64,000 bases of DNA from contig QQVM01000021.1 of the NCBI GenBank assembly GCA_003389385.1, positions 7,299 to 71,298 of the forward strand, written 5' to 3'. The DNA is from Bacteroidota bacterium (GTDB lineage: Bacteria; Bacteroidota; Bacteroidia; AKYH767-A; 2013-40CM-41-45). The notes beneath the pieces were generated by a model that did no database searches, was not told the DNA's origin, and was given only the letters and a program-made list of their open reading frames with translations. The position numbers and the translations under genes were made by a program. Of this stretch, positions 17,189-58,575 are shown piece after piece (within the stretch, counting starts at the first letter, position 1; every line of letters starts with the position of its first letter).

Positions 17189-18178
17189 TTACATGTAACC
17201 CATTTTTTTCATCCATTCATCGTTGAAAATCTTCGCAAGATAGCGTGAGCCGTGATCATGGAAAATCACCACCACCAGATCACTCTCGCTCAACTGGTCT
17301 TTCATTTGAAGTAAACCTGCTATGGCCGAGCCGGCGGAATTTCCAACCCAGATTCCCTCTTTGGATACAATTTCCCTTGTCATCACTGCTCCGTCTTTAT
17401 CGCTCACTTTTTCAAAATGATCAATCAGGTCAAAGTCGTAATTTTTGGGAATAAAATCTTCTCCAATTCCTTCAGTCACGTATGAGTAAATCTCTTCCTG
17501 GTCGAGTTCTCCGGTTTCATGATATTTTTTCAGAGCAGAACCGTAGGTATCTATTCCCCAAACTTTAATATCAGGATTTTTCTCCTTGAGAAATTTTGCC
17601 ACGCCGCATATGGTGCCTCCTGTTCCAGCGCCTACCACTAAATGCGTGATTTTTCCTTCAGTCTGATCCCAAATTTCCGGAGCAGTGGATTCATAATGTG
17701 CTTGACGATTGCTCAGATTATCGTATTGATTGGGATAAAAACTGTTTGCAATTTCCTTGTTAAGTCTTGCTGCAACTGAATAGTAAGATTTCGGATCCTC
17801 TGGTGCCACATTGGTCGGACAAACTATCACATCGGCTCCAAATGCTTTCAAAGCATCAACCTTTTCCTTGCTTTGCTTGTCAGTTGTAGTAAATATGCAT
17901 TTGTATCCTTTCACAATTGCTGCGATTGCCAGCCCCATTCCCGTATTTCCGGAAGTACCTTCAATGATAGTTCCTCCAGGTTTGAGCTTGCCTGCTCTCT
18001 CAGCATCTTCAATCATCTTAACAGCCATCCTGTCTTTGATTGAATTGCCAGGATTGAAAGTTTCCACCTTAGCATATACTTTGGCTTTTACTCCTTCCAC
18101 AACCTTGTTGAGACGTATAAGCGGCGTATTTCCAATCGACTCCAATACGTTTTCACATACATTCTTCTTGTTTGCCAT
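17189..18178 (-). CDS. PLP-dependent cysteine synthase / cystathionine beta-synthase family protein
   Basis: IGNTPL, NPGNSIKDR (PLP Lys), TSGNTG, GTGGT, EGIG. Confidence 0.9.
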   Translation of the reverse strand: MANKKNVCENVLESIGNTPLIRLNKVVEGVKAKVYAKVETFNPGNSIKDRMAVKMIEDAERAGKLKPGGTIIEGTSGNTGMGLAIAAIVKGYKCIFTTTDKQSKEKVDALKAFGADVIVCPTNVAPEDPKSYYSVAARLNKEIANSFYPNQYDNLSNRQAHYESTAPEIWDQTEGKITHLVVGAGTGGTICGVAKFLKEKNPDIKVWGIDTYGSALKKYHETGELDQEEIYSYVTEGIGEDFIPKNYDFDLIDHFEKVSDKDGAVMTREIVSKEGIWVGNSAGSAIAGLLQMKDQLSESDLVVVIFHDHGSRYLAKIFNDEWMKKMGYM

Positions 18179-23777: not shown

Positions 23778-25340
23778 TCAGGATCTGCTGCTCATCACAG
23801 CAAACGGGATGAGCATTTCTTCCAAAGAAATACCTCCATGCTGGAAAGTGTTTTTGTAGTACGTCACGTAATAATTGTAATTGTTCGGATATGCGAAGAA
23901 CTTATCCTGTTTTGCAAATACAAAAGTCTGACTCAGGTTTTGCCGGGGAAGGAAAGCATCGACAGGATTTTTTATTTCAAAAACTTCCCTCTTGTCATAA
24001 TTCATGTTTTTGCCCTGCTTATAACGCAAATTCGTATTAAGCGTGCGGTCTCCAACTATTTTACTCGGCTCCTTCACCCTGATGGTACCATGGTCTGTAG
24101 TGATGATAATACGGCAATTTTTCTCGGCCATTCTTCGAATTGCCTCAAGAAGAGGAGAATGTTCAAACCATGATAATGTGATTGAACGATAGGCTGCTTC
24201 ATCTTCGGCTAGTTCCCGTATCATTTCCATTTCTGTGCGAGCATGAGATAGCATGTCAACAAAATTATAGACAATCACATTGAACTTGTTTTGCATGAGA
24301 CGTGGAACATTTTCTACAAGCTCTTTTCCGTCGTTGTGATTAGTGATCTTTGTATAAGAAAACTTGTAATCCTTCCTGTGTCTTTGCAATGTGTCAGCCA
24401 GAAATGTTTCTTCATGCTGATTTTTTCCTCCCTCTTCTTCGTCATTCATCCAAAGTTTCGGAAATCTTGATTCTATTTCTGATGGCAAGAGCCCGGCGAA
24501 AATAGCATTGCGCGCATACTGAGTGGCAGTTGGCAGGATGCTCAGATAAAGATCCTCCTCATTCAGTCTGAAAAGCTCGTTAAGAACAGGTTCTATTATC
24601 TTCCACTGATCATATCTCAGGTTGTCAATGAGAATCATAAAAACCGGATCAGAAGCTGAATCCACAGCAGGCAGGATTTTTCGCTTCATGAGTTGATTCG
24701 AAAGTACAGGCGTATCTGCTTTGTCAGAATCTTTAAGCCATTTCAGGTAGTTGTTCTCAATGAATTTTGAAAAGAGAAGATTGGCCTCGCTCTTCTGACT
24801 TGTCAGAATTTCATACATGCTTTCATCTTCTGACTTTTCCAATTCCAGTTCCCAGAAAACAAGACGCTTGTACACATTACGCCATTCCTCCCAGCTTAGC
24901 TTGTCGCTTAATGTCATACCCAGGTTCCTAAACTCCTGTTGGTATGCCGAAGTGGTCTTTTCACTTATAAGCCTTTTGTTTTCAAGATTCTTCTTTAAGG
25001 ATAATAGGATCTGATTTGGGTTTACGGGCTTGATTAGGTAATCGGCAATCTTGTTGCCTATCGCATCTTCCATTATGGACTCTTCCTCGCTCTTAGTAAT
25101 CATGATTACAGGTATGGAAGGTTTCAGGTTCTTTAGCCTGCTCAACGTTTCCAGACCTGAAAGTCCCGGCATGTTCTCATCAAGAAAGACAATGTCAAAA
25201 TCCTGCTCTTTTATCTTATCCAGAACATCATTGCCATTCGTGACAGTAGTCACAGAATATCCTTTTTCCTGCAGGAAAAGCAAATGTGGTTTGAGCAAGT
25301 CAATTTCATCATCGGCCCAAAGTATGTTGGCATTATCCAT
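23778..25340 (-). CDS. porX: Response regulator PorX (receiver plus PglZ phosphodiesterase domain)
   Basis: ILWADDEID, FLDENMPG receiver; IDNLRYDQW, LPTATQYARN, TTDHG, FQHGGIS PglZ motifs; start moved to 25340. Confidence 0.92.
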   Translation of the reverse strand: MDNANILWADDEIDLLKPHLLFLQEKGYSVTTVTNGNDVLDKIKEQDFDIVFLDENMPGLSGLETLSRLKNLKPSIPVIMITKSEEESIMEDAIGNKIADYLIKPVNPNQILLSLKKNLENKRLISEKTTSAYQQEFRNLGMTLSDKLSWEEWRNVYKRLVFWELELEKSEDESMYEILTSQKSEANLLFSKFIENNYLKWLKDSDKADTPVLSNQLMKRKILPAVDSASDPVFMILIDNLRYDQWKIIEPVLNELFRLNEEDLYLSILPTATQYARNAIFAGLLPSEIESRFPKLWMNDEEEGGKNQHEETFLADTLQRHRKDYKFSYTKITNHNDGKELVENVPRLMQNKFNVIVYNFVDMLSHARTEMEMIRELAEDEAAYRSITLSWFEHSPLLEAIRRMAEKNCRIIITTDHGTIRVKEPSKIVGDRTLNTNLRYKQGKNMNYDKREVFEIKNPVDAFLPRQNLSQTFVFAKQDKFFAYPNNYNYYVTYYKNTFQHGGISLEEMLIPFAVMSSRS

Positions 25341-25523
25341 AAGGTCTGTGTCCTGTGTTTTTTTTGTATTTCCTTCAAAGGTAGCAAAGTTGTTTCGAAT
25401 CATTTTAGAATAATTTTCTGTTTGAATACCTCAACGAGATCATATCTTAAATATTTAATGATTGCTCTCAGATTTCATTCAATCAAACTAATGCAGATAT
25501 TTGCCGGAGAAATAAACTATATA

Positions 25524-48028: not shown

Positions 48029-51000
48029 ATGATTAAAGTTACTTACAACTTCGTCAGGTTTTTGATAATCCTGATCATGGCAATTGTTGTGCATAACAAT
48101 GAAGTTCGCGCAAGTCATGCGATGGGTGCGGATCTTACCTATGCATGTGTAGGAGGAAATCCAAATCAATACTTACTTACCTATTCCTTTTATCGAGATT
48201 GCGACGGTATATCTGCTCCATCATCAGTTACGATTTCCTATACTTCTTCCTGTTTTGGCGGAGGCAGTGTCACCCTTAATCCTACGCCATCTTCACCAAC
48301 TCACATCACACCGGTATGTCCGACTGCCCTCACCACTTGCAATGGAGGTACATTCACAGGAATTGAGGAATGGATTTATACCGGAACTGTGACTCTGCCA
48401 GGTCCGTGTGCCGACTGGAGATTTAGTTTTTCGCACTGTTGCAGAAATGGAGCCATTACAACAATAAATGCTCCAACTGCAGATAACATTTATGTATACT
48501 CATTGCTCAATAATACAATGGGTTGTAATAACTCGCCAACTTTTGGAAACAGACCGGTTCCTTTTGCGTGTGTAGGACAAAGGTTCTGTTTCAATCACGG
48601 TGCAAACGATCAGGATGGTGATTCCATCACTTATCAGTTGATCACACCTTTTTCTGGAGCAACAACAACCGTTACCTATACAGCTCCTTATTCAAGCACG
48701 CAGCCTGTGAGATCAAATCCTCCGGTTTCATTCAACCCGATTACAGGGGATATTTGCATGGTTCCTACACAAACAGACGTTACAGTATTTGCAGTATTGG
48801 TATCAGAATATCGGAATGGGGTATTAATTGGACAGGTTGAGAGAGATATTCAGCTAACTATAAACAATTGTAATAACTTTCTTCCATTGCTTACGGGGAT
48901 AAATGGTTTGCCTTCATTCACAATGAGTGCTTGCGCCAATACACCAATTAATTTCTGGTTTAGGTCTATAGACGCTGATGTGCCCAACACTACCAGAATC
49001 ACCTGGGATTTTGCCATTCCGGGAGGAACACTCACTACGACAGGAGGGAATCGCGACACTGCCTATTTCAGTTGGACACCTACTACAGCACAGATCAGTA
49101 ATTCTCCATATTGCTTTACCGCTACTGTCGAGGATGATAACTGCCCGTATCTCGGAGTGAATGTCTATTCCTATTGCATAACAGTCTGTGGATTGGATGC
49201 CAATGCCGGAATCGATCAGGTTGTGAATTGCGGTGCTACCGCAAACTTGAGTGGTTCAGCTACTGGGAACTGCAGTTCCAATTATACTTACACATGGAAT
49301 CCGGGAGGTGTATCCGGACAAAATTTAAATGGAGTAGGAGTTGGAACTTATCAGCTGATAGTCAGCAACAATGTTTGCAGCGACACAGACTATGTGGATG
49401 TTCTTCCCGGTCCCGGTGTACCCGTTGCAAACTTCAACTTCACTACTAATTGTAGCAGTACACAGGTGCCTTTTTCGGATCAGTCTGTTGCCACCGGCGT
49501 AAATATTACACAATGGAGCTGGAATTTTGGAGATAACAATACCTCCAACCAGCAGAACCCAACACATACTTACGCAGCAAATGGAACTTATAATGTGACA
49601 CTTATTGTCACAACCGCAACAGGTTGTCAGGATACAATTATGCAGCAGGTCACAGTCAGTACCAATGTGCCGAATGCAGTTTTCAGTTCACCTGCTGTCT
49701 GTAACGGTACAGCCATGAATTTCTCTGACCTTTCTACAGGCGGACAGATTGTGGCTTGGAGCTGGAACTTTGGCGATCCTGGTAGTGGAGCCAACAACAC
49801 CTCTAATGCTCAGAATCCATCACACACTTTTACCGGAGCAGGAACTTTCCCGGTGAGTCTGCAGGTTACAAATGCGGCAGGTTGTTCAACTACTGTCCAA
49901 CAGAACGTAACTGTAAATGCAAATCCAACTGTCTTTGTGGCTGATGCGCAAATTTGCATCGGCAGTTCAACAAATCTGACTGCCCCGGCAGGATTTTCTA
50001 ACTATAACTGGAATCCTGGTGGAGCTTTGCAGACAATTACGGTTAGCCCTGTCGTAAACTCGTCATATACAATCACTGTTACTGATGCTAATAATTGTCA
50101 AGGAAGTCATACCGTAAATGTGACTGTTAACCCTTTGCCACTTGCTGATGCAGGGCAGGATCAGACGATTTGTGCAGGCACCAATGCAACTTTAACAGCA
50201 AGTGCAGGTGGTGCTACTTACGTGTGGAATCCCGGGAATCTTAACGGACAAAGTGTGTCTGTTAGTCCTGCTAGCACACAGATATATACGCTTACTGTTA
50301 CTAGTGCTGCCGGATGTGTAAACACAGATCAAATTACCATCAATGTAAACCCTATGCCATTAGTTGAGGCCGGGGATGATCTTGCGATATGCAAAGGTGA
50401 GTCTGCAACGTTGACCGCAATTGGAGCTGGTAATATTATTTGGACTCCAGGACCAATTAATGGTGCGTCGATTACTGTTAGTCCATTAGTCACAACCACT
50501 TATACTGTGACCATAAGCGATGGAATAGGCTGCACCGGAACTGATGCGGTTACTTTAATTGTGAATGAAATACCTGTGGCTGACTTCTCAAACTCAGCCC
50601 CGGTTTGTCAGGGTAATATTGTTACGTTTAACGATATATCAACCATTCCTGTTGGTACCATTACGAACTGGCTTTGGGACTTTGGAAATGGCCAATCTTC
50701 CAACCAACGAAATCCACAAAATACATATGTTGCATCTGGGAATTTCAATGTACAGCTCATTGTAACTTCTAACGGAGGTTGTAAGGACACCACAGTTCAG
50801 TTGATTGTGATCAATCCTATTCCTGCTGTGGATGCCGGAGCTGATGCAAATATTTGTCCGGGCTTTAATGCCACTCTTACAGCAGCTCCTGCAAATCAAT
50901 ACTTGTGGACTCCAGGCAACTTTATTACGCAATCAATCACAATTAGCCCGGCTGCTACGACCGATTATACACTTACTGTTACTGATGTGAACGGATGTCA

Positions 51001-52765
51001 GAACACTGATGTCGCCAGAGTTATTGTGAATCCAGTTCCTGTAGCGAATGCAGGTCCTGATCAGAGCATATGTTTCGGAGAAAATACAACTTTATTTGCC
51101 GCCGGTGTTGGCAATTATACCTGGACTCCTGGAAATTCCAATTCTGCAAGCTTTAATGTGAGTCCTGCAGTAACAACCACCTATCAATTGCATGTTGTGA
51201 ACGCATTCGGTTGCGAAGATTTTGATGATGTTACAGTACAGGTTAACCCCATTCCGGTTTCGGCCTTTACTTCAAGCGGACCAGTTTGTCAGGGTAATCC
51301 GGTATCTTTTACAGATGTTTCGACAGTCAGCTCAGGAAGCATAACTTCATGGTCTTGGGATCTTGGTAGCGGAGTGGTGAGCACAATACAAAACCCTTCA
51401 TTACCTTATAATACAGCAGGTATTTTCAATATTCAGCTAATTGTTACTACAGATGCAGGTTGTAAGGATACAATCTTGAACCCGCTTACCATTTGGGCAA
51501 CACCGGTTGCCTCCTTCACAAACACCAATGTCTGCGAGGGAAATCCGATACAGTTTAGTAATACGTCCACAATTTCTGATGGTACCAGCTTGATTTACTC
51601 ATGGAACATGGGTGACAATTCCGGCACTTCCAACTCCGCATCTCCTTCATATCAATATTCTGTTTACGGATCTTATCCGGCAACCTTGTCAGTCAGTTCA
51701 GTAAATGGCTGCTCAGACCAAATAACCCGTATCGTCAATGTCTTTCCTTTGCCAACTGCGGCTCTCACACATACTTTTGCCTGTGAAGACAGTCCTGCTC
51801 AGTTTCAGGATATGTCCACTGTTCCTGCAGGAAATATTAGTTCATGGTATTGGACTTTTGGAGACGGATCTATCGGCACTTTCCAAAATCCTCAACACAC
51901 CTATAACGACCCGGGCTATTATCCGATCACATTACTTGTAAGTACTAATAATGGTTGTCAGGATATGGCAAATTCAGTTATCAGAATTGCTCCACGACCT
52001 GTGTCGGATTTCAGCACTCAAAATGTATGCTTCGGGGAGTTTACTGCACTCACAGATTTGTCTTATCCTGTCACAGGCAGCATTACCCAATACAGTTGGA
52101 GCTTTGGAGACGGAAACACATCCTCTGATCAGGATCCTGTGCATTTTTATAATTCTCCAGGTTGGTATCAGGTTTCTCTTACCGTGACCTCCGATAGTGG
52201 TTGTGTAACCACTCTGACAAGACCGAATGCTGTGCAGATTTACAGGCCTCCTACAGCTTTGTTCTCAAGCAGCGATGCTCAGGCCAGCGATATTTATCCG
52301 CTGATTAATTTCTATAATGAGACAGGTTCGCTTGGTACTTATCAGTGGGATTTCGGTGATGGCACTACAGCGACGGATTACTCGCCAACTCATATGTATC
52401 CTGATGTGGGAACTTATGTAGTCCGCCTTATCACAGTTGATTTGAATGGCTGTGTGGATACTGTTTATCGTACAGTTGAGATTAAGCCTAGCTCAACAAC
52501 CTATATACCCAATGCGTTTACTCCCAATGGAGATAAGAAAAATGACATGTTTAGGGTTTATACACATAATGTCACTCAACTTGAAGCACAAATTTTTGAC
52601 CGTTGGGGACTCAAGGTCTTTGAATGGGATAATCTGGAAGGCGGCTGGGACGGAAGGGTAGAGGGAAATCCTGCTCAAGCTGATGTGTACATTTATCGGG
52701 TTACGACCACTGATGTGAACAGCAAGCGGGAAGTTTACATCGGCCACGTCAGTCTCGTCAGATAA
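48029..52765 (+). CDS. T9SS type-B cargo protein with PKD and Ig-like repeats
   Basis: Signal peptide, Cys-rich N-domain (SHAMGADLTY..., YRDC, CCRN), about 8 PKD repeats (W.W.FGD...NP.H.Y), about 6 AG.D..IC Ig-like repeats, C-terminal YIPNAFTPNGD..ND.F...WDG...Y.Y. Confidence 0.9.
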   Translation: MIKVTYNFVRFLIILIMAIVVHNNEVRASHAMGADLTYACVGGNPNQYLLTYSFYRDCDGISAPSSVTISYTSSCFGGGSVTLNPTPSSPTHITPVCPTALTTCNGGTFTGIEEWIYTGTVTLPGPCADWRFSFSHCCRNGAITTINAPTADNIYVYSLLNNTMGCNNSPTFGNRPVPFACVGQRFCFNHGANDQDGDSITYQLITPFSGATTTVTYTAPYSSTQPVRSNPPVSFNPITGDICMVPTQTDVTVFAVLVSEYRNGVLIGQVERDIQLTINNCNNFLPLLTGINGLPSFTMSACANTPINFWFRSIDADVPNTTRITWDFAIPGGTLTTTGGNRDTAYFSWTPTTAQISNSPYCFTATVEDDNCPYLGVNVYSYCITVCGLDANAGIDQVVNCGATANLSGSATGNCSSNYTYTWNPGGVSGQNLNGVGVGTYQLIVSNNVCSDTDYVDVLPGPGVPVANFNFTTNCSSTQVPFSDQSVATGVNITQWSWNFGDNNTSNQQNPTHTYAANGTYNVTLIVTTATGCQDTIMQQVTVSTNVPNAVFSSPAVCNGTAMNFSDLSTGGQIVAWSWNFGDPGSGANNTSNAQNPSHTFTGAGTFPVSLQVTNAAGCSTTVQQNVTVNANPTVFVADAQICIGSSTNLTAPAGFSNYNWNPGGALQTITVSPVVNSSYTITVTDANNCQGSHTVNVTVNPLPLADAGQDQTICAGTNATLTASAGGATYVWNPGNLNGQSVSVSPASTQIYTLTVTSAAGCVNTDQITINVNPMPLVEAGDDLAICKGESATLTAIGAGNIIWTPGPINGASITVSPLVTTTYTVTISDGIGCTGTDAVTLIVNEIPVADFSNSAPVCQGNIVTFNDISTIPVGTITNWLWDFGNGQSSNQRNPQNTYVASGNFNVQLIVTSNGGCKDTTVQLIVINPIPAVDAGADANICPGFNATLTAAPANQYLWTPGNFITQSITISPAATTDYTLTVTDVNGCQNTDVARVIVNPVPVANAGPDQSICFGENTTLFAAGVGNYTWTPGNSNSASFNVSPAVTTTYQLHVVNAFGCEDFDDVTVQVNPIPVSAFTSSGPVCQGNPVSFTDVSTVSSGSITSWSWDLGSGVVSTIQNPSLPYNTAGIFNIQLIVTTDAGCKDTILNPLTIWATPVASFTNTNVCEGNPIQFSNTSTISDGTSLIYSWNMGDNSGTSNSASPSYQYSVYGSYPATLSVSSVNGCSDQITRIVNVFPLPTAALTHTFACEDSPAQFQDMSTVPAGNISSWYWTFGDGSIGTFQNPQHTYNDPGYYPITLLVSTNNGCQDMANSVIRIAPRPVSDFSTQNVCFGEFTALTDLSYPVTGSITQYSWSFGDGNTSSDQDPVHFYNSPGWYQVSLTVTSDSGCVTTLTRPNAVQIYRPPTALFSSSDAQASDIYPLINFYNETGSLGTYQWDFGDGTTATDYSPTHMYPDVGTYVVRLITVDLNGCVDTVYRTVEIKPSSTTYIPNAFTPNGDKKNDMFRVYTHNVTQLEAQIFDRWGLKVFEWDNLEGGWDGRVEGNPAQADVYIYRVTTTDVNSKREVYIGHVSLVR

Positions 52766-52783
52766 ATCCAAATACGAATTGTT

Positions 52784-52808
52784 AAAGCCGGCGCAAGCCG
52801 GCTTTTTT
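52784..52808 (+). terminator. Intrinsic terminator
   Basis: AAAGCCGGC-GCAA-GCCGGCTTTTTT perfect stem with a GNRA loop. Confidence 0.88.
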
Positions 52809-52871
52809 ATGTTGTTGATAACTGTGCTGATAAGTAGGTCCATCCGGACCTTACTTTTTTTTATGCCCCTC

Positions 52872-52879
52872 TAACTTTG
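52872..52879 (+). promoter_or_regulatory. -7 promoter box of the oxoamine synthase gene
   Basis: TAACTTTG exact consensus match, implying a 5' UTR of about 65 nt. Confidence 0.7.
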
Positions 52880-52898
52880 TGAGAGAATCATTCGTATC

Positions 52899-52945
52899 AG
52901 GGTGACATCACAACGCGGGTAGAACTACCCCCTTAACCGACCCCT
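52899..52945 (+). ncRNA. Candidate structured cis-regulatory 5' leader
   Basis: Outer GGGT/ACCC pairing, inner GGGTA-GAAC-TACCC hairpin, A/C-rich joining strands; ends just before ATG 52949. Confidence 0.4.
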
Positions 52946-52948
52946 TCT

Positions 52949-54220
52949 ATGTCCAGTATTAAAACCAAACATGATCAGGTTTTAGAAATTGTAAACCAGG
53001 TTGCGACAATTGCTGCAAAACTTGGCATTGTTCACAACAACACCGATGATGGCATTCTGGACGGAAGACATATCAGCATTAAAGGGAATAAACTCCTCTA
53101 TTTTGGCAGCTGCGGATATCTCGGACTAGAACATGACGCAAGACTCAAACAAGGAGCGATTGATGCCATTCAAAAATATGGTACGCAGTTTTCTTCTTCA
53201 AGAGCTTATGTTTCATCTTCTTATTATCAGGAATCCGAACATTTATTGAGCACAATGTTTGGGGGAAGGCCATTGCTATTACTTCAGTCACTCACGGTTG
53301 GTCATATGTCCAATATACCAATATTGGTAGGCAGTGACGATGCCGTAATTATGGATTCCCAGGTGCATGATTCAGTTCAGACTGCAGTGCAGTTTCTCAA
53401 AAACAGGGATATTCATGTTGAGTTAGTAAGGCATAACCGAATTGACATGCTCGAGAGTAGAATTAAAGCTCTTAAAAATGATTACCATAAAATCTGGTAT
53501 ATGGCCGACGGGGTATATTCCATGCAGGGTGATTATGCACCAATTAAAGATTTGTTCCGTCTTGCTGACCAGTATGAACAATTGTATCTGTATATTGATG
53601 ATATCCATGGAATGAGCTGGGCAGGACCAAACGGAACAGGGTACGCATTGTCTCAAGGAGATTATCATCCGAAGTTATATCTGACTACCGGTCTTACAAA
53701 AGCATTCGGAACTGCCGGAGGTTTGTTGATTTATCCTGAAGAGTCAAGTTACAATCTTGTCAAGAATACAAGCAAAGCATTCATATTTTCTATTCAGATG
53801 CCTCCGATGGTTCTGGGCGCAAGCATTGCTTCTGCTAAAATTCATCTCAGCGATGAAATTTATACTTTTCAAAAAGAACTTAAAGATAAGGTGTTATTCT
53901 TTAACAGCACTGCGAAAAAATTGGGTCTGCCTCTGATTAATGAAACTGATTCTCCGATTGGTTTCATTGGAGTTGGGAAACCTGATGTGGGTTACAACAT
54001 GGTTCGAAGAATGATGAATCATGGATATTATTTTAACCTGAGCGTCTTCCCGTCTGTTTCTTATAATAATACTGGATTGCGTATTCCTTTAAACAGAATG
54101 CATACTTACCAGGACATTGAAAATCTTCTGAACGAAATTGCAATTCAGTTGCCTATGGCGCTCGAAGATTCTCATTCAAGTATGTCAGACATCATCAAGC
54201 ATTTCAAATTGGTCGCATGA
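52949..54220 (+). CDS. Alpha-oxoamine synthase family PLP enzyme (AONS/KBL/SPT/CqsA fold), substrate unknown
   Basis: FGSCGYLGL, DSQVH, DGVYSMQGD.AP, DDIHG, TKAFG (PLP Lys), C-terminal LRI. Confidence 0.85.
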   Translation: MSSIKTKHDQVLEIVNQVATIAAKLGIVHNNTDDGILDGRHISIKGNKLLYFGSCGYLGLEHDARLKQGAIDAIQKYGTQFSSSRAYVSSSYYQESEHLLSTMFGGRPLLLLQSLTVGHMSNIPILVGSDDAVIMDSQVHDSVQTAVQFLKNRDIHVELVRHNRIDMLESRIKALKNDYHKIWYMADGVYSMQGDYAPIKDLFRLADQYEQLYLYIDDIHGMSWAGPNGTGYALSQGDYHPKLYLTTGLTKAFGTAGGLLIYPEESSYNLVKNTSKAFIFSIQMPPMVLGASIASAKIHLSDEIYTFQKELKDKVLFFNSTAKKLGLPLINETDSPIGFIGVGKPDVGYNMVRRMMNHGYYFNLSVFPSVSYNNTGLRIPLNRMHTYQDIENLLNEIAIQLPMALEDSHSSMSDIIKHFKLVA

Positions 54221-54234
54221 CAAAATGCAGAAAT

Positions 54235-54263
54235 AAAAAAGCTCCTTTAAGGAGCTTTTTTTT
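54235..54263. terminator. Bidirectional terminator
   Basis: AAAAAAGCTCC-TTTAA-GGAGCTTTTTTTT between convergent genes. Confidence 0.88.
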
Positions 54264-54281
54264 ATGGTATTGCTGGTTTAT

Positions 54282-54707
54282 TTAAGGCTGTTCGCAGAGT
54301 TGCCAGAAGTTGTTTAGAATAGCTACGGCCGCAACAAAATTTTCAAATGAGATGGGTTTAATGATATAACCGGCAACGTTATAATTGTATGCTTCGAAAC
54401 GGTCTTTGTCGTCATTTGAAGTTGTCATTACAAAGACGCTGATATTATGCAAATCTTTATCAGATCTGAGTTCCTTCAGAAATTCCAGCCCATTCATTTT
54501 TGGCATATTGATATCCAGAAGAATAATCCTTGGTAAAGGATTGATCTTGGAGACTCCGTTTGTTCCCCGGAGCATGTCAAGAGCTTCAACTCCATTGTGG
54601 GCAATGGAGAGAGGGTTAGAGATATTGCTTTTCTTAAATGCTCTCTGAACATTCATACAATCCACTTCATCATCATCGACGAGCAGAATATTTACCACTT
54701 TTTCCAT
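54282..54707 (-). CDS. Single-domain response regulator (Rcp1-like receiver)
   Basis: LLVDDD, LLDINMPKMNG (phospho-Asp), MTTS, IKP; no output domain. Confidence 0.92.
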   Translation of the reverse strand: MEKVVNILLVDDDEVDCMNVQRAFKKSNISNPLSIAHNGVEALDMLRGTNGVSKINPLPRIILLDINMPKMNGLEFLKELRSDKDLHNISVFVMTTSNDDKDRFEAYNYNVAGYIIKPISFENFVAAVAILNNFWQLCEQP

Positions 54708-54933
54708 CTGGACAATTTTTCCGTTTTATCTGAAATATTACGATTTAGACCCTGCTTTGTTACAACATGATGAGTTATAAATATTGATCAAACCGTGAAC
54801 TGGATTAACAGGTTGGAAATTGTGCAAGTTGTTGGATTTCATTTAGTTTATAAAAACCGATTCGATGTGTTAAAATGAAACAATATTAGTCTTAATCTTA
54901 CACTTGGGTATCTGAATACTAATAACTGCGTAA

Positions 54934-56346
54934 ATGTCAGCAAAATTGAATCAAGATATTCTGATGAAAAGAATAATCAACGCTATGTTCAGGCGGGAAT
55001 TCTATGAGAGCATTCCTTTTGAAGATCTGTTGTCGAGGCAGAGATTTACATTGTTCCGTATTTTTTCTTATACGGCATTTATTGCGAGCCTGGCATCATC
55101 CATACAAGTTTACTCGGCCTTTCAGGCAATGAATGCTATTTCAATTATTATCGCGCTTTTAGCTGTGGTGATTATTGCGAATTTTTTTCTTGCAAATAAA
55201 ACTGAAAGACTTTCTACCCACTATATGATTTCTACAGTGGCAGGATTTTTTGTAGTTCACATTCAGGCATACAATACCGGTGGAGTTATGAATTCAGGTA
55301 CTATGTATATGTGTGTCCTGATTATGACTGCTTTCATGCTTCTCGGAACAACTGCAGGAAAGTGGTTTACAGCAATGGCAATTCTTAATGTTGGTTTTCT
55401 GTTTTACGCTTCAGAATTCACGGGCCTTACTTCTTATTCTCTGTTTCATGACGATCTTAGTCTGATCAGACAGGATGCATTGTCAACTTTTATACTCGCA
55501 CTCTTCCTTGTCGCCGCTCAGAGTAATTATCTCCATAGCGGAAAGAACGTGATTATTGAACGCATTACTGAACAGAAAAACCAGCTTGAGATAAGTAACC
55601 GTAAATTGCAGGAGTATACATTTCACCTTGAGAAAACTAACAAGGAGCTTGATAAATTCGCTTCAATTGTTTCTCATGATCTAAAAGCTCCGCTGAGGGC
55701 CATTGGTAATCTCACTGGTTGGATAGAGGAAGATTCAATGGAGTCTCTTTCTGATGAGAGCAGGGCCCACTTTAATATGATCAAGCAACGTGTGAAGAGA
55801 ATGGATGACTTGATCGAGGCTATTCTGAGCTATTCAAGAGCTGACCAACATGCAGGCGAAGAAACTATGTTTGATACATTGGAGCTGATTGAAAGTACTG
55901 TTGACTTCATCGGAAGACCATCTCATGCCCAAATCAACATCGGACCTGGAATGCCTGTGATGAAAAGCGATAAAACCAGGTTAGGTCAAGTGTTTTCAAA
56001 CCTGATAGGCAATGCCATTAAATATAATAACAAGGAAACTGCTAAAGTATCTGTGACGGTTAAAGACTGTGGAGAAGGATGGGAATTTTCGGTGAGGGAT
56101 AATGGCCCTGGCATAGAAAAACAGTATCATGAAAAGGTCTTTGTTATATTTCAAACACTCAACAGGAGGGATGATGTAGAAAGTACAGGGGTTGGATTGG
56201 CCATAGTAAAGAAGATTATTGAAGACCAGGGTGGTAAGATTTGGGTAGAATCGGATGGTGAAAATGGATCAGATTTTCGCTTTTTCTGGCCAAAAATTAA
56301 AAAAGAAAAGGATTCTATTCTGATCGCTGCGCCAATAGTTGTGTAA
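54934..56346 (+). CDS. Membrane-bound sensor histidine kinase (about 6 TM)
   Basis: Six hydrophobic segments, coiled coil, H-box SHDLKAPLR, N-box NLIGNAIKY, DNGPGI, TGVGLAIVKKI. Confidence 0.93.
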   Translation: MSAKLNQDILMKRIINAMFRREFYESIPFEDLLSRQRFTLFRIFSYTAFIASLASSIQVYSAFQAMNAISIIIALLAVVIIANFFLANKTERLSTHYMISTVAGFFVVHIQAYNTGGVMNSGTMYMCVLIMTAFMLLGTTAGKWFTAMAILNVGFLFYASEFTGLTSYSLFHDDLSLIRQDALSTFILALFLVAAQSNYLHSGKNVIIERITEQKNQLEISNRKLQEYTFHLEKTNKELDKFASIVSHDLKAPLRAIGNLTGWIEEDSMESLSDESRAHFNMIKQRVKRMDDLIEAILSYSRADQHAGEETMFDTLELIESTVDFIGRPSHAQINIGPGMPVMKSDKTRLGQVFSNLIGNAIKYNNKETAKVSVTVKDCGEGWEFSVRDNGPGIEKQYHEKVFVIFQTLNRRDDVESTGVGLAIVKKIIEDQGGKIWVESDGENGSDFRFFWPKIKKEKDSILIAAPIVV

Positions 56347-56415
56347 GGACTGCCTTCATTTCAATAAACTCTTCCATTTTCACGGAGTTATATTGCACTA
56401 TAAAAAAGAATCTCC

Positions 56416-56757
56416 ATGCAAAAAGTAAACTTTAACAATGAAACACAGGCTTCATCATCCATGAAAGTAATCACGGATATTCAAAGCAAAGCACACATCG
56501 AACAGGAAATCGACAGACATGTAAAAAGCATTCAAAAGCTGATTGCCAGGCTTGGTCTTCCTGAGAGACAAAAATATTATGATGGATTGCTTTCTCACAT
56601 TCTTCACGAAGAGATAAAATACGAACCTGTATCCAGCCTCGCACCAGACCGTAGGAATAATGATTACAGCAGGTTGTCAGCAACGGAACTTAAGCTGATC
56701 AGAGAATTATCTGTTCAGATGGAAAGAATGTACAGAACAGTCGGTGATACAGACTGA
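56416..56757 (+). CDS. Hypothetical protein (113 aa, likely soluble and helical)
   Basis: Clean ATG ORF between the kinase and a terminator; no recognised motif. Confidence 0.7.
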   Translation: MQKVNFNNETQASSSMKVITDIQSKAHIEQEIDRHVKSIQKLIARLGLPERQKYYDGLLSHILHEEIKYEPVSSLAPDRRNNDYSRLSATELKLIRELSVQMERMYRTVGDTD

Positions 56758-56776
56758 TTCTGGAACAATGATAATG

Positions 56777-56814
56777 AAACGCGCTTCGGAAGCAATTCTG
56801 CAGCGCGTTTTTTT
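56777..56814 (+). terminator. Intrinsic terminator
   Basis: AAACGCGCT...AGCGCGTTTTTTT. Confidence 0.75.
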
Positions 56815-56817
56815 ATT

Positions 56818-58575
56818 CTATAGCAATCTTAGTACGGGATATCTCCGAAAACCTTTTTCGAAATATTCTGAGTTTTTGTAAATGAAATAAAGTTGTTCAA
56901 ACGCGTTTTCTCTGACCGTTGGATTTGAGTCCCTGAATTCCTCAAACTTATTTTTCAAGGTTTCGTCAGCTTCCAAAAGTTCTGCCGCCAGATCTTCAAA
57001 TACATAATCGGAAAACCATTCTTTTTGCTGCAGTATAGCGTCAAAAAAGCCCCAGTTAAAATAACTGTCCACAGAAATCGGTTCCAGTGTTTCAATGATA
57101 TATCTGATGCCATCCTGATTCACTGGTATAATAAAGTCGCCAGCTTCAATTTTAACCTTTTCTGTTTTCCTGCTTATTTTAGTATTGCTATGAAGATAGC
57201 GCCCTTCATAAGGAGTTGAAACAGTATTGTAGTCTTCAATATAAGATATTTCAGCGACTACCATGCTGTCACTTTTGATCTCTCCAACAGTTATTCCTGC
57301 GCTTCGCATAATAGGAATGATTTTTTTCCAAGCTTGAGGAACAAGGTAGAATCGAGGAGCTGTAATAGTGTCACTCGCTTTGTAATAAGGATAGAATTTT
57401 ATTTTTTTCTCGTAGGGTGAATTGCGGTCATACAATTGCCTGTTTAATCCGGTTATGCTGCTTTTGACAATTTTATATTCAAAACCTTTGAACAGGATTT
57501 CCTCAAATTTATTTTCATCAAGTTTCCAGTTTACAGGAAAGTGTTTTGAGTTTTTATTTTTTTCAATTGCTGTTTTTCTGAGTGCAGTGATCATCGATTT
57601 TTCTTCAGAGCAAATTTTCACCAGAGACTTTATTAGGTCAAGGGTAGCAGCCAGCCTCTGATCATATGGCTTGAGCATATGGGTTTCTGCAATAAATCCA
57701 ATTGTACTGAATAATGCTGCATATCCGCTGCTGTAACGGGGAGTTTCCAGGAATGCAATAAGACCGCTGTCAGGCGGCAAATTCCATCTCTTTGTGTTCA
57801 CATAGTGCATCATTTCTTGGCCTTTTTCTTTCATGTGCTTAAATAGCCTGGGTGAAAGATGATCATGCAGGTAATCACCCAGGATAGGATAAAGCTTGTT
57901 GTGTTGCGTACTTACCAGAGTCATGGTGTATTGATAATCCGCTCCATTGCTTACATGGGTGTCCAGAAGTACGTCTGGATTCCAGTAATGAAAAAAGTTT
58001 TTCCATGAATCTGTATTGAGCGCATCGGACTTGATAAAGTCACGGTTCAGATCGAGATATTGCCCGTTAGCCCGAAAACCATATTCATCCGGACCATTTT
58101 GATTGACTCTGGAGCAACACCCTCTTTGCATCGAACCTTCTACATTATGTATTGGAATAATGCAGATTATGATACTGTCTGGAATGTCAGCTGCTTTTCC
58201 GGAAAGGAGTTCGCGGGCAAATTGCAAACTGGCATTTACTCCGTCCGGTTCTCCCGCATGTATTCCGTTATTGATCAGAAGCACCAGGTTTTTCTGCTCT
58301 CTGGCTTTTACCGGTGAAAAGTGCTTGCTTTTATCAATCACAAAAACATGCAATGGTTTTCCATTGTCGCATTTTCCTCCTTCAAAAAGTCTGGCATATT
58401 CACTGTTTTTATCAAGCTCTGAATATGCTGTGATTATTTCAGCATAAGTAGGATTCATGCTGTGTAAACTTCTTACCTGATTATTTAAAGCCAGAACAAT
58501 TACAGTTATTATAATCAATGCTTTTATGTGAAAATTAGTCTGAGGCTTTTTATCAAGAAATATTGAAAGAGTCAT
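56818..58575 (-). CDS. M14 family zinc carboxypeptidase-like protein
   Basis: GIHAGE (HxxE), DLNRD, DTH zinc motif; exact start uncertain. Confidence 0.82.
   Translation of the reverse strand: MTLSIFLDKKPQTNFHIKALIIITVIVLALNNQVRSLHSMNPTYAEIITAYSELDKNSEYARLFEGGKCDNGKPLHVFVIDKSKHFSPVKAREQKNLVLLINNGIHAGEPDGVNASLQFARELLSGKAADIPDSIIICIIPIHNVEGSMQRGCCSRVNQNGPDEYGFRANGQYLDLNRDFIKSDALNTDSWKNFFHYWNPDVLLDTHVSNGADYQYTMTLVSTQHNKLYPILGDYLHDHLSPRLFKHMKEKGQEMMHYVNTKRWNLPPDSGLIAFLETPRYSSGYAALFSTIGFIAETHMLKPYDQRLAATLDLIKSLVKICSEEKSMITALRKTAIEKNKNSKHFPVNWKLDENKFEEILFKGFEYKIVKSSITGLNRQLYDRNSPYEKKIKFYPYYKASDTITAPRFYLVPQAWKKIIPIMRSAGITVGEIKSDSMVVAEISYIEDYNTVSTPYEGRYLHSNTKISRKTEKVKIEAGDFIIPVNQDGIRYIIETLEPISVDSYFNWGFFDAILQQKEWFSDYVFEDLAAELLEADETLKNKFEEFRDSNPTVRENAFEQLYFIYKNSEYFEKGFRRYPVLRLL

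Follow-up and report, generated by a model that had tools for sequence, protein, structure and literature searches.

A candidate synthase and sensor module in uncultured Bacteroidota: an alpha-oxoamine synthase-like enzyme encoded beside a membrane histidine kinase, a stand-alone receiver and a small helical protein

The gene sets cqsA-cqsS and lqsA-lqsR-hdeD-lqsS each pair an alpha-oxoamine synthase (AOS) with a six-helix kinase. A group of four genes in a Bacteroidota bacterium (assembly GCA_003389385.1) raises the question of whether an enzyme and a sensor of this general kind have been brought together in this phylum as well, and of what such a pair would do. The genes lie within a stretch of 64,000 nucleotides of contig QQVM01000021.1 (positions 7,299 to 71,298, forward strand), referred to here as the window, at the following positions:

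52949–54220, plus strand: open reading frame (ORF) for an AOS-fold protein of 423 amino acids (aa), with an Aminotran_1_2 domain
54282–54707, minus strand: ORF for a stand-alone receiver of 141 aa, with Response_reg as its sole domain
54934–56346, plus strand: ORF for a histidine kinase of 470 aa, with HisKA and HATPase_c domains
56416–56757, plus strand: small ORF of 113 aa, its product predicted to be cytoplasmic and helical

A previous, sequence-only reading of the window had placed four such genes here and likened them to the Cqs and Lqs systems, and the coordinates and domains of the ORFs agree with that layout. The module is an analogue of the Cqs/Lqs systems and not a member of them. 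It is proposed, with a probability of roughly 0.4, that it represents a self-contained and co-inherited four-gene circuit in which the product of the AOS, or its build-up in the membrane, is the ligand of the kinase.

The enzyme belongs to the AOS superfamily (PF00155, 52.3 bits against a cut-off of 19.7) and keeps the catalytic set noticed at the outset, namely H140 (DSQVH), D217 and H220 (DDIHG), K251 (TKAFG) and R378, all of which are invariant in alignments of its family. The same residues are common, by alignment, to true CqsA and to the Kbl, BioF-like and cysteate-C-fatty acyltransferase (CFAT)-like paralogues in the same genome. Their roles are presumably those seen in AONS and SPT structures: the lysine that binds pyridoxal phosphate (PLP), the ring-stacking histidine, the aspartate at the pyridine nitrogen, the histidine at O3' and the carboxylate-binding arginine. 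The motif SNxYLGL had been observed to read SCGYLGL, and this is a property of the whole family, with Cys55 invariant in 9/9 and 19/19 family sequences in two alignments and Asn at this position in all five canonical AOS sequences aligned. SC(G/S)YLGL is therefore a family-wide signature.

The window enzyme scored below the cut-off of every NCBIfam model. Its best match was NF005697 (PRK07505, 'hypothetical protein') with 244 bits against a cut-off of 342; this model carries no function, and six other members of the AOS family from five further genomes, for which it was likewise the top model, also fell below its cut-off (248–295 bits). Scores were 165.9 bits for BioF (TIGR00858, cut-off 426), 129–147 bits for Kbl (TIGR01822/NF005394, cut-offs 460–493), 120–149 bits for Spt (NF047599/600/603, cut-offs 500–670) and 123 bits for ALAS (TIGR01821, cut-off 339). 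The lowest score of all, 71.5 bits, was obtained with the CqsA-type model NF005526 (cut-off 428). Since the Kbl, BioF-like and CFAT-like paralogues reach 190, 177 and 161 bits on the same model, the window enzyme is the least CqsA-like AOS in its own genome. Among solved structures the nearest were 8xha and related entries (120 bits, residues 22–393), followed by Spt (about 104), Kbl (103), CFAT 28eh (66) and CqsA (32 bits).

To place the family as a whole, a FastTree phylogeny was built with 111 rows, consisting of 101 loci and the window, the three paralogues from the same genome and six CqsA sequences, with seven duplicate loci and three partial AOS matches left out. This tree placed all 102 AOS-family rows in a single clade with 100% support, separated by a branch of 1.52 substitutions from the CqsA, Kbl, BioF-like and CFAT-like rows on its opposite side. 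Its deep branch placements are provisional, LqsA and JqsA are not among its rows, and, because long branches meet among the outgroups, the separateness of the AOS family is the sole claim taken from it. The basal rows of the family, 20 in number, have a GNAT domain either fused to the AOS or encoded after it (Pontibacter, Imperialibacter, Cyclobacteriaceae and Chitinophagales), and an 81-row clade of unfused AOS with 98% support contains every locus linked to the receiver and kinase genes of the module. By model scores and by the tree the window enzyme stands apart from BioF, Kbl, Spt and ALAS; it is none of these, nor CFAT or CqsA, and lies in a clade of its own.

The genome encodes four AOS proteins, namely the window enzyme, a Kbl (TIGR01822, 625 bits, above cut-off), the BioF-like protein and the CFAT-like protein (G000 C7:181256-182329), the last matching the solved cysteate-C-fatty acyltransferase 28eh with 521 bits and 7u7h with 555 bits. 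With these paralogues and a CapA-like candidate in the window, the roles of an AOS in biotin, threonine and sulfonolipid metabolism are plausibly covered elsewhere, and capnine-type sulfonolipids are probably made through genes other than the window AOS. The CapA-like cysteate synthase candidate lies at 17192–18178 on the minus strand (NF053679, 467 bits against a cut-off of 600), and a cystathionine beta-synthase model scores almost equally on this ORF. It had also been remarked that no biotin genes or threonine dehydrogenase lie nearby, and an NCBIfam scan of ORFs of at least 130 aa bears this out, with bioA, bioC, bioD and threonine dehydrogenase absent among the 39 further window ORFs at E<=1e-30. 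It should also be noted that the search with the CqsA model flagged an in-frame TGA over the BioF-like paralogue (G000:C7:134814-135917). A protein search found an open frame of 393 aa there, and the flagged TGA is probably due to the match running past the end of the gene.

The linkage of the enzyme to its neighbours was followed through 104 distinct loci, made up of 31 from relatives and 80 from genome_contigs after dropping seven duplicates; the 80 are the best of 589 confirmed relatives. A locus was counted as linked where an orthologous receiver of at least 40% identity lay within 2.5 kb, together with a kinase bearing the same sensor domain. The AOS adjoins both in 50 of the 104 loci, and in 48 of 87 when the count is confined to loci that extend 3 kb or more downstream. 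The remaining loci comprise five with receiver or kinase alone (three of which run out of sequence), 20 with a GNAT domain and 29 with neither receiver nor kinase, 11 of these having less than 3 kb downstream. Linkage is kept down to 47% identity of the AOS, the linked receivers being 41–97% identical, and the receiver is the gene nearest the AOS, 7–355 nt away in 49 of the 50 linked loci. In the closest family loci the receiver is 84–97% identical, compared with 60–72% for the kinase. A conserved linkage of the homologues to kinase and receiver, on which the earlier proposal depended, is thus found, and in several contexts.

The module occurs in at least three flanking contexts. In the family of the window itself it has a PKD/CHU_C gene on one side and M14/M16 peptidase genes on the other. 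In 12 loci, from two other families of the same order and genome G009, it lies within a cluster for phenylacetate (paa) catabolism that reads PaaC, PaaD, enoyl-CoA hydratase, 3-hydroxyacyl-CoA dehydrogenase, small ORF, kinase, receiver, AOS, PaaI thioesterase, PaaJ thiolase and PaaY, that is, between paaH and paaI (L039, 3552-13119; L040, L042, L044, L045, L074-L076, L087, L092, L096 and L037). The remaining linked loci have neither PKD/peptidase nor paa flanks. The paa genes of the window's genome are on other contigs (C19 and C11) and without the module, and the 1.5-kb gap between paaI and paaH there holds a 511-aa ORF and no remnant of the module. The paa context may hint at CoA-thioester donors from this pathway, or may merely mark an ancestral insertion site. 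A short-chain dehydrogenase/reductase adjacent to AOS paralogues in three loci (L034, L035 and L061) was considered as a pathway partner and set aside, as the same protein (81% identity) stands alone elsewhere in the window's genome.

At the level of whole genomes, AOS orthologues (46–85% identity) were present in 33 of 40 relatives, with a clear gap to the paralogues at no more than 125 bits, and in all 24 genomes of the window's own family. The 225-residue sensor domain of the kinase was found in 32 of the 40, the very genomes in which an unfused AOS orthologue is present (31/31 without the unpublished genome G038). Seven of the eight relatives without the sensor have no AOS orthologue either, two of these genomes being 58% complete, and the eighth, G026, has a GNAT-fused AOS. 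G040 represents the single clear case within a family where both genes are absent. In G021 the AOS and the trio of receiver, kinase and small ORF are on different contigs, and both are retained.

The receiver has the acidic pocket (D12/D13), the phospho-acceptor D65, T96 and K117, all invariant in 19 sequences, and the kinase has H248 in its H-box (SHDLKAPLR) with DNGPGI and GVGLAIVKK, all invariant in 17 sequences; the two proteins thereby carry the residues of a classical two-component pair. The solved relatives of the receiver are headed by 2qvg (107 bits), followed by RcpB 1k66 (81), a bacteriophytochrome-receiver fusion 8avv (77) and Rcp1 1i3c (73), and the nearest to the kinase core are the bacteriophytochromes 9ys3 and 8uph (98 bits). 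This is in keeping with the suggestion that the pair is of the Cph1/Rcp1 type rather than the CqsS type. The transmitter and receiver are bacteriophytochrome/Rcp-like by similarity only, and Pfam detected no photosensory domain.

Residues 1–230 of the kinase contain no Pfam domain at cut-off. Hydropathy and an alignment of 17 sequences indicate about six membrane helices between residues 38 and 200, approximately, joined by short loops, in agreement with the earlier description of a six-helix sensor lacking a large periplasmic domain. Within these helices or at their ends H109, Y113, G116, G117, G138, D181 and N205 are invariant. A coiled coil lies between the sensor and the HisKA H-box in the window kinase, and in the window's family the sensor is joined directly to the DHp domain; other families have a PAS domain inserted between the two. 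In the linked loci L042 (1541-5063) and L074 (G027:C14:47116-49492), two tandem copies of the sensor kinase were seen downstream of the receiver.

The sensor family is small. A profile search against 1.84 billion representatives returned 164 clusters at E<=1e-3, of which 74 remain at E<=1e-10 and 50 at E<=1e-30, and all 93 close homologues found by a word-indexed search are kinases of uncultured Bacteroidota. Against Pfam the window sensor scored 14.8 bits for MASE11 and 9.8 bits for MASE6, where the gathering cut-off is about 26–27 bits, and sub-threshold matches to MASE11, MASE6 and MASE7 were seen in 5, 5 and 2 of the 21 members of the sensor alignment. Pfam MASE6 is present in six of the 15 distant profile matches scanned, in combination with kinase, GGDEF or Hpt modules. 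The kinase with a MASE7 domain beside another AOS subclade (L114, L124) gave 21.9% in hhalign (E about 1e-3), and the kinases of L088 and L091 gave 0.4%. The sensor may be a divergent MASE6-like domain, the relation being weak and its scores below the Pfam gathering cut-off. It differs from MASE6, MASE7 and MASE11 in that its family has an invariant set of its own (H109, Y113, GG, D181 and N205).

An ORF of 79–148 aa on the same strand, 9–88 nt after the stop codon of the kinase, is present in 47 of the 50 linked loci, one of the three exceptions being a locus where the sequence runs out, and tblastn detects the small ORF in 29 of the 50. Two helical motifs are common to these ORFs, HVKSIxxLIxxLxPxERQxYxxGLL and, near the C-terminus, LSxxELxLIxELS...LY. 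Searches of Pfam and NCBIfam gave no family, and the ESM Atlas no usable match. A role as Hpt protein was considered and rejected, the histidine of RHVKS being Tyr, Ser, Gln or Lys in several orthologues.

How far the module resembles the known systems could be judged within the phylum, as NF005526 gave matches above its cut-off (592–642 bits) in 37 of 401 sampled genomes, all of family f30, the other 56 families sampled giving no such match. The f30 CqsA gene adjoins a membrane kinase in the four loci examined (L141-L144; G166, G246, G138 and G298), the kinases of L141-L143 being divergently encoded and 847–857 aa long and that of L144 680 aa; two of the former, scanned with Pfam, have HATPase_c, two receiver domains and Hpt. 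These kinases were taken as CqsS orthologues by their adjacency to true CqsA. In BLASTP, the alignment of a CqsA-adjacent kinase with the window kinase was limited to HATPase_c, and hhalign of the 21 window-type sensor domains against four CqsS-like sensors gave a probability of 0.3%. The likeness therefore lies in the arrangement, an AOS-fold PLP enzyme beside a kinase of about six helices without a periplasmic domain. As in the Legionella layout, moreover, the kinase is non-hybrid and the response regulator has a gene of its own, placed between the other two or next to them. The differences lie in the parts. The enzyme is outside the CqsA clade (71.5 bits against 428 with NF005526, below its own paralogues; 32 bits to solved CqsA) and has Cys in place of the motif Asn (SCxYLGL), the sensor has no detectable homology to that of CqsS, the transmitter and receiver are of the bacteriophytochrome/Rcp type, and a conserved small helical ORF takes the place of hdeD. 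Membership of the enzyme in the CqsA/LqsA/JqsA family was accordingly not borne out, as judged from the model scores and from a tree containing CqsA, and the independent assembly that the sequence-only reading had suggested is the description that holds.

Other comparisons were also made. The nearest solved structure, 8XHA, is Alb29 (PMC11906848), an AOS of secondary metabolism from Streptomyces albogriseolus. Alb29 resembles the window enzyme as its best solved match and in that it is also without the motif Asn (SSYSYLGL). It differs as a distant AOS relative, actinobacterial and from a biosynthetic cluster, not a two-component neighbourhood. Alb29 is reported to use glutamate. The basal subclades of the window's AOS family, fused to or followed by Acetyltransf_6, are similar in build to Rv0032 of Mycobacterium tuberculosis, a BioF2-like protein that differs in carrying its extra domain at the N-terminus, function unknown (PMC12910592). 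The window-type AOS has no GNAT partner anywhere in its own genome at E<=1e-5.

The basal AOS members fused to Acetyltransf_6 (FemAB-like GNAT) are 808–845 aa long and occur in cultured Pontibacter, in an Imperialibacter metagenome-assembled genome and in Chitinophagales (L101:6529-11158, L095:6485-11170, L046:4801-7823, L105, L115 and L120-L123). Beside these fusions lies a divergent DUF7793/SpoIIAA-like gene, followed in Pontibacter and Imperialibacter by a hybrid PAS kinase, and the Imperialibacter genome (L095 / G447:C1:5005293-5013910) has two AOS-GNAT genes about 6 kb apart in opposite orientation. The lineage with the linked receiver and kinase, labelled type A, has no cultured member among the loci from the best 80 of 589 relatives. 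Outside type A, the immediate neighbour of the AOS is a signalling or regulatory gene in 23 of the 27 loci with enough flank, the exceptions being L029, L034, L098 and L099. A divergent DUF7793 (SpoIIAA-like) gene is present in 11 loci, and downstream there is often a hybrid PAS kinase or a receiver; receivers accompany membrane PAS kinases in L088, L091, L112, L114, L124 and L125, and there are LytTR or GerE response regulators in L043, L046, L077, L090 and L100, MerR in L077, L085 and L102, and AraC in L105 and L121. Where MerR is the neighbour, three genomes of the subclade each have the sensor kinase twice at other places in the genome, and the three copies examined, from two of these genomes, have no receiver or small ORF alongside. 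The recurrence of regulatory neighbours suggests that the product of the AOS family has its place in signalling or in some strictly conditional response. Their variety would fit either direction of information flow, a product that is sensed or an enzyme that is controlled.

In the circuit proposed here, the AOS would condense an amino acid with an acyl-thioester to give a small molecule of the alpha-aminoketone type, probably lipophilic. The six-helix, MASE6-like sensor, wholly embedded in the membrane, would detect this product or its build-up there, and such a sensor with invariant polar residues (H109, Y113, D181 and N205) would suit a lipophilic ligand. The kinase would then autophosphorylate at H248 and pass the phosphoryl group to D65 of the receiver, which, as it is without a DNA-binding domain, would act through protein contacts, and the small helical protein may be an accessory factor of the relay. 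To judge by the conservation of their residues all parts of the module appear functional. A signal function is plausible. The reading of the pair as synthase and sensor is favoured by the one-to-one association of the enzyme with one specific all-membrane sensor family, by the fact that both are kept even in genomes where they lie apart, by the lack of an output domain through which the AOS gene could be directly controlled, and by the precedent of the Cqs and Lqs systems.

Several observations weigh on the other side. The linkage proportions are biased toward near kin, as the loci include the best 80 of 589 relatives, and the co-occurrence amounts to few independent events, whole families having both genes or neither. 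The type of receptor is not conserved across the AOS family (27 non-type-A loci), and the varied regulators there are at least as compatible with an enzyme under tight regulation as with a signal synthase. The AOS and receiver genes are convergent and not co-transcribed. Orphan sensor kinases with neither AOS nor receiver beside them occur in G001, G027, G031, G036, G441 and G443. In a phylum sample of 400 genomes, G127 has the sensor and no member of the AOS family at E<=1e-90, and 11 genomes have the AOS without the sensor, ten of them with frames of 648–862 aa and one, G107, with an unfused AOS and no sensor at E<=1e-10.

The coupling may instead run the other way, with the kinase sensing an envelope, membrane or environmental cue and the relay controlling the AOS. 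Control would pass through a regulator encoded elsewhere, or the receiver or small protein would touch the enzyme directly, so that the product, for example a conditional lipid, protectant or secondary metabolite, would be the output. The pattern in 23 of the 27 loci, where the type of neighbouring regulator changes and the enzyme stays constant, is typical of a regulated target gene, and DNA-binding regulators stand directly beside the AOS in L077, L085, L090, L102, L043, L100 and L046. In the module itself the AOS has its own conserved upstream box, unique in the genome, no gene lies closer to the AOS than that of the receiver (7–355 nt in 49 of 50 loci), and the receiver is unusually conserved in the closest family loci (84–97%) relative to the kinase (60–72%). 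The receiver has no output domain, however, so that direct transcriptional control would be impossible, and it would be unexplained why one membrane sensor family alone co-occurs with the unfused AOS. This direction of control is held to be a serious, if still tentative, competitor.

It is also conceivable that the enzyme supplies a bound cofactor or ligand for the sensor and that the actual stimulus is redox, light or membrane state. The haem oxygenase BphO makes biliverdin for the adjacent bacteriophytochrome kinase, in an operon with the layout bphO-bphP-receiver. The window module has the same class of transmitter (9ys3 and 8uph, 98 bits) and receiver (RcpB and Rcp1, 81 and 73 bits), and by analogy with that system an enzyme gene beside the sensor could supply its ligand; the one-to-one occurrence of enzyme and sensor in the 40 relatives and the invariant His, Tyr, Asp and Asn within membrane helices would fit as well. 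The window kinase differs, though, in having a membrane sensor and no PAS-GAF-PHY, and its enzyme is an AOS, not a haem oxygenase. AOS products are not known to have chromophore-like chemistry, and the orphan sensor paralogues far from any AOS and the sensor of G127, a genome without the AOS family, also speak against such a role, which is considered improbable. Less credible still is a housekeeping AOS (BioF, Kbl, Spt, ALAS or CFAT) in an inherited and functionally meaningless gene order. The enzyme is in 24/24 genomes of its own family, as expected of a core gene, and has all the catalytic residues, yet every named model scores far below its cut-off, the clade is set apart by the 1.52-substitution branch, the genome has its own Kbl, BioF-like and CFAT-like proteins, and the linkage persists where the module stands in other surroundings.

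An AOS beside a membrane kinase is an arrangement of a known kind, and it is the parts and their combination that are new. Three protein families without a curated model above threshold are involved, namely the AOS clade, the membrane sensor domain and the small helical protein. Literature searches spanning oxoamine synthases, CqsA/LqsA in Bacteroidetes, BioF2-GNAT and MASE6/7/11 found nothing on this AOS family, and PMC8895600 does not treat CqsA in Bacteroidetes. Whether the module is the first dedicated pair of signal synthase and receptor, quorum-sensing-like or autocrine, in the class Bacteroidia, independent of Cqs/Lqs, must be called doubtful at present. Little is understood of cell-to-cell and autocrine chemical signalling in Bacteroidota. 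The module, kept together in different families of an uncultured order that is common in metagenomes from fresh and engineered waters, offers a concrete and testable candidate for a signal chemistry that would be new, and for a ligand that no MASE-type sensor yet has. Should the module be such a pair of synthase and receptor, its AOS product would be the earliest ligand assignment for a MASE6-like domain, and the whole AOS family, the GNAT-fused Pontibacter forms beside DUF7793 and PAS kinases included, would consist of signal synthases found throughout the phylum. Should the relay control the enzyme, one would have a clear example of a PLP enzyme under a response regulator that consists of a receiver alone. 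The GNAT fusions, an uncharacterised counterpart of the module, occur in cultured Pontibacter, which opens the AOS family to experiment.

The module is delimited and subdivided by the following elements:

52784–52805, plus strand: terminator-like hairpin from the scan (9-pair stem with 6 GC pairs, T-run), the left module boundary
52813–52833, plus strand: conserved box TGTTGAWAACnnTGCTnATAA, about 115 nt 5' of the AOS start codon
54234–54263, no strand assigned: hairpin of A-run, 7-bp stem and T-run, read by eye, with no report from the scanner
54897–54932, plus strand: conserved element CTTACAnTTnGGnATCT...GCGTA, directly 5' of the kinase start codon
56777–56815, no strand assigned: hairpin with T-run, read by eye (stem AAACGCGCT/AGCGCGTTT), the right module boundary

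The terminators that had been given as bounds, at 52784 and 56777, are both confirmed, the former from the scan and the latter by eye, the scanner having missed it as its loop exceeds 8 nt; that the receiver is encoded on the minus strand had not been stated. The left hairpin closes the upstream PKD/CHU_C gene and the right one lies between the small ORF, which begins 69 nt after the kinase, and a convergent M14 peptidase gene. The hairpin at 54234–54263 separates the convergent AOS and receiver genes and is likely a bidirectional terminator. An Rfam search over 52500–57200 at E<=1 gave sub-threshold matches on the terminator region and nothing else.

The AOS upstream box, which sits between two hairpins, is recognisable in 9 of 10 aligned orthologous upstream regions and has a single match in the window at up to three mismatches and in the whole 3.37-Mb genome at up to one. 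It is a candidate promoter or operator, or may be a leader. The receiver and kinase genes are divergent with a spacer of 226 nt, which holds the CTTACAnTTnGGnATCT...GCGTA element, present in 8/8 aligned orthologous receiver-kinase intergenic regions. No common motif was found between the AOS and kinase upstream boxes in the aligned orthologous regions. In L027, L053, L056 and L060 the gap between the convergent AOS and receiver genes is only 7–13 nt, with no space for a terminator; where the two genes nearly abut in this way their transcripts would overlap and antisense interplay is possible.

The flanking genes encode, by Pfam, an M14 carboxypeptidase and a 1578-aa PKD/CHU_C substrate of type IX secretion. 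The latter (48029–52765) is directly upstream of the module and has eight PKD repeats and a CHU_C sorting domain. A PorX-type response regulator of type IX secretion is encoded elsewhere in the window at 23781–25403 on the minus strand (847 bits against a cut-off of 300).

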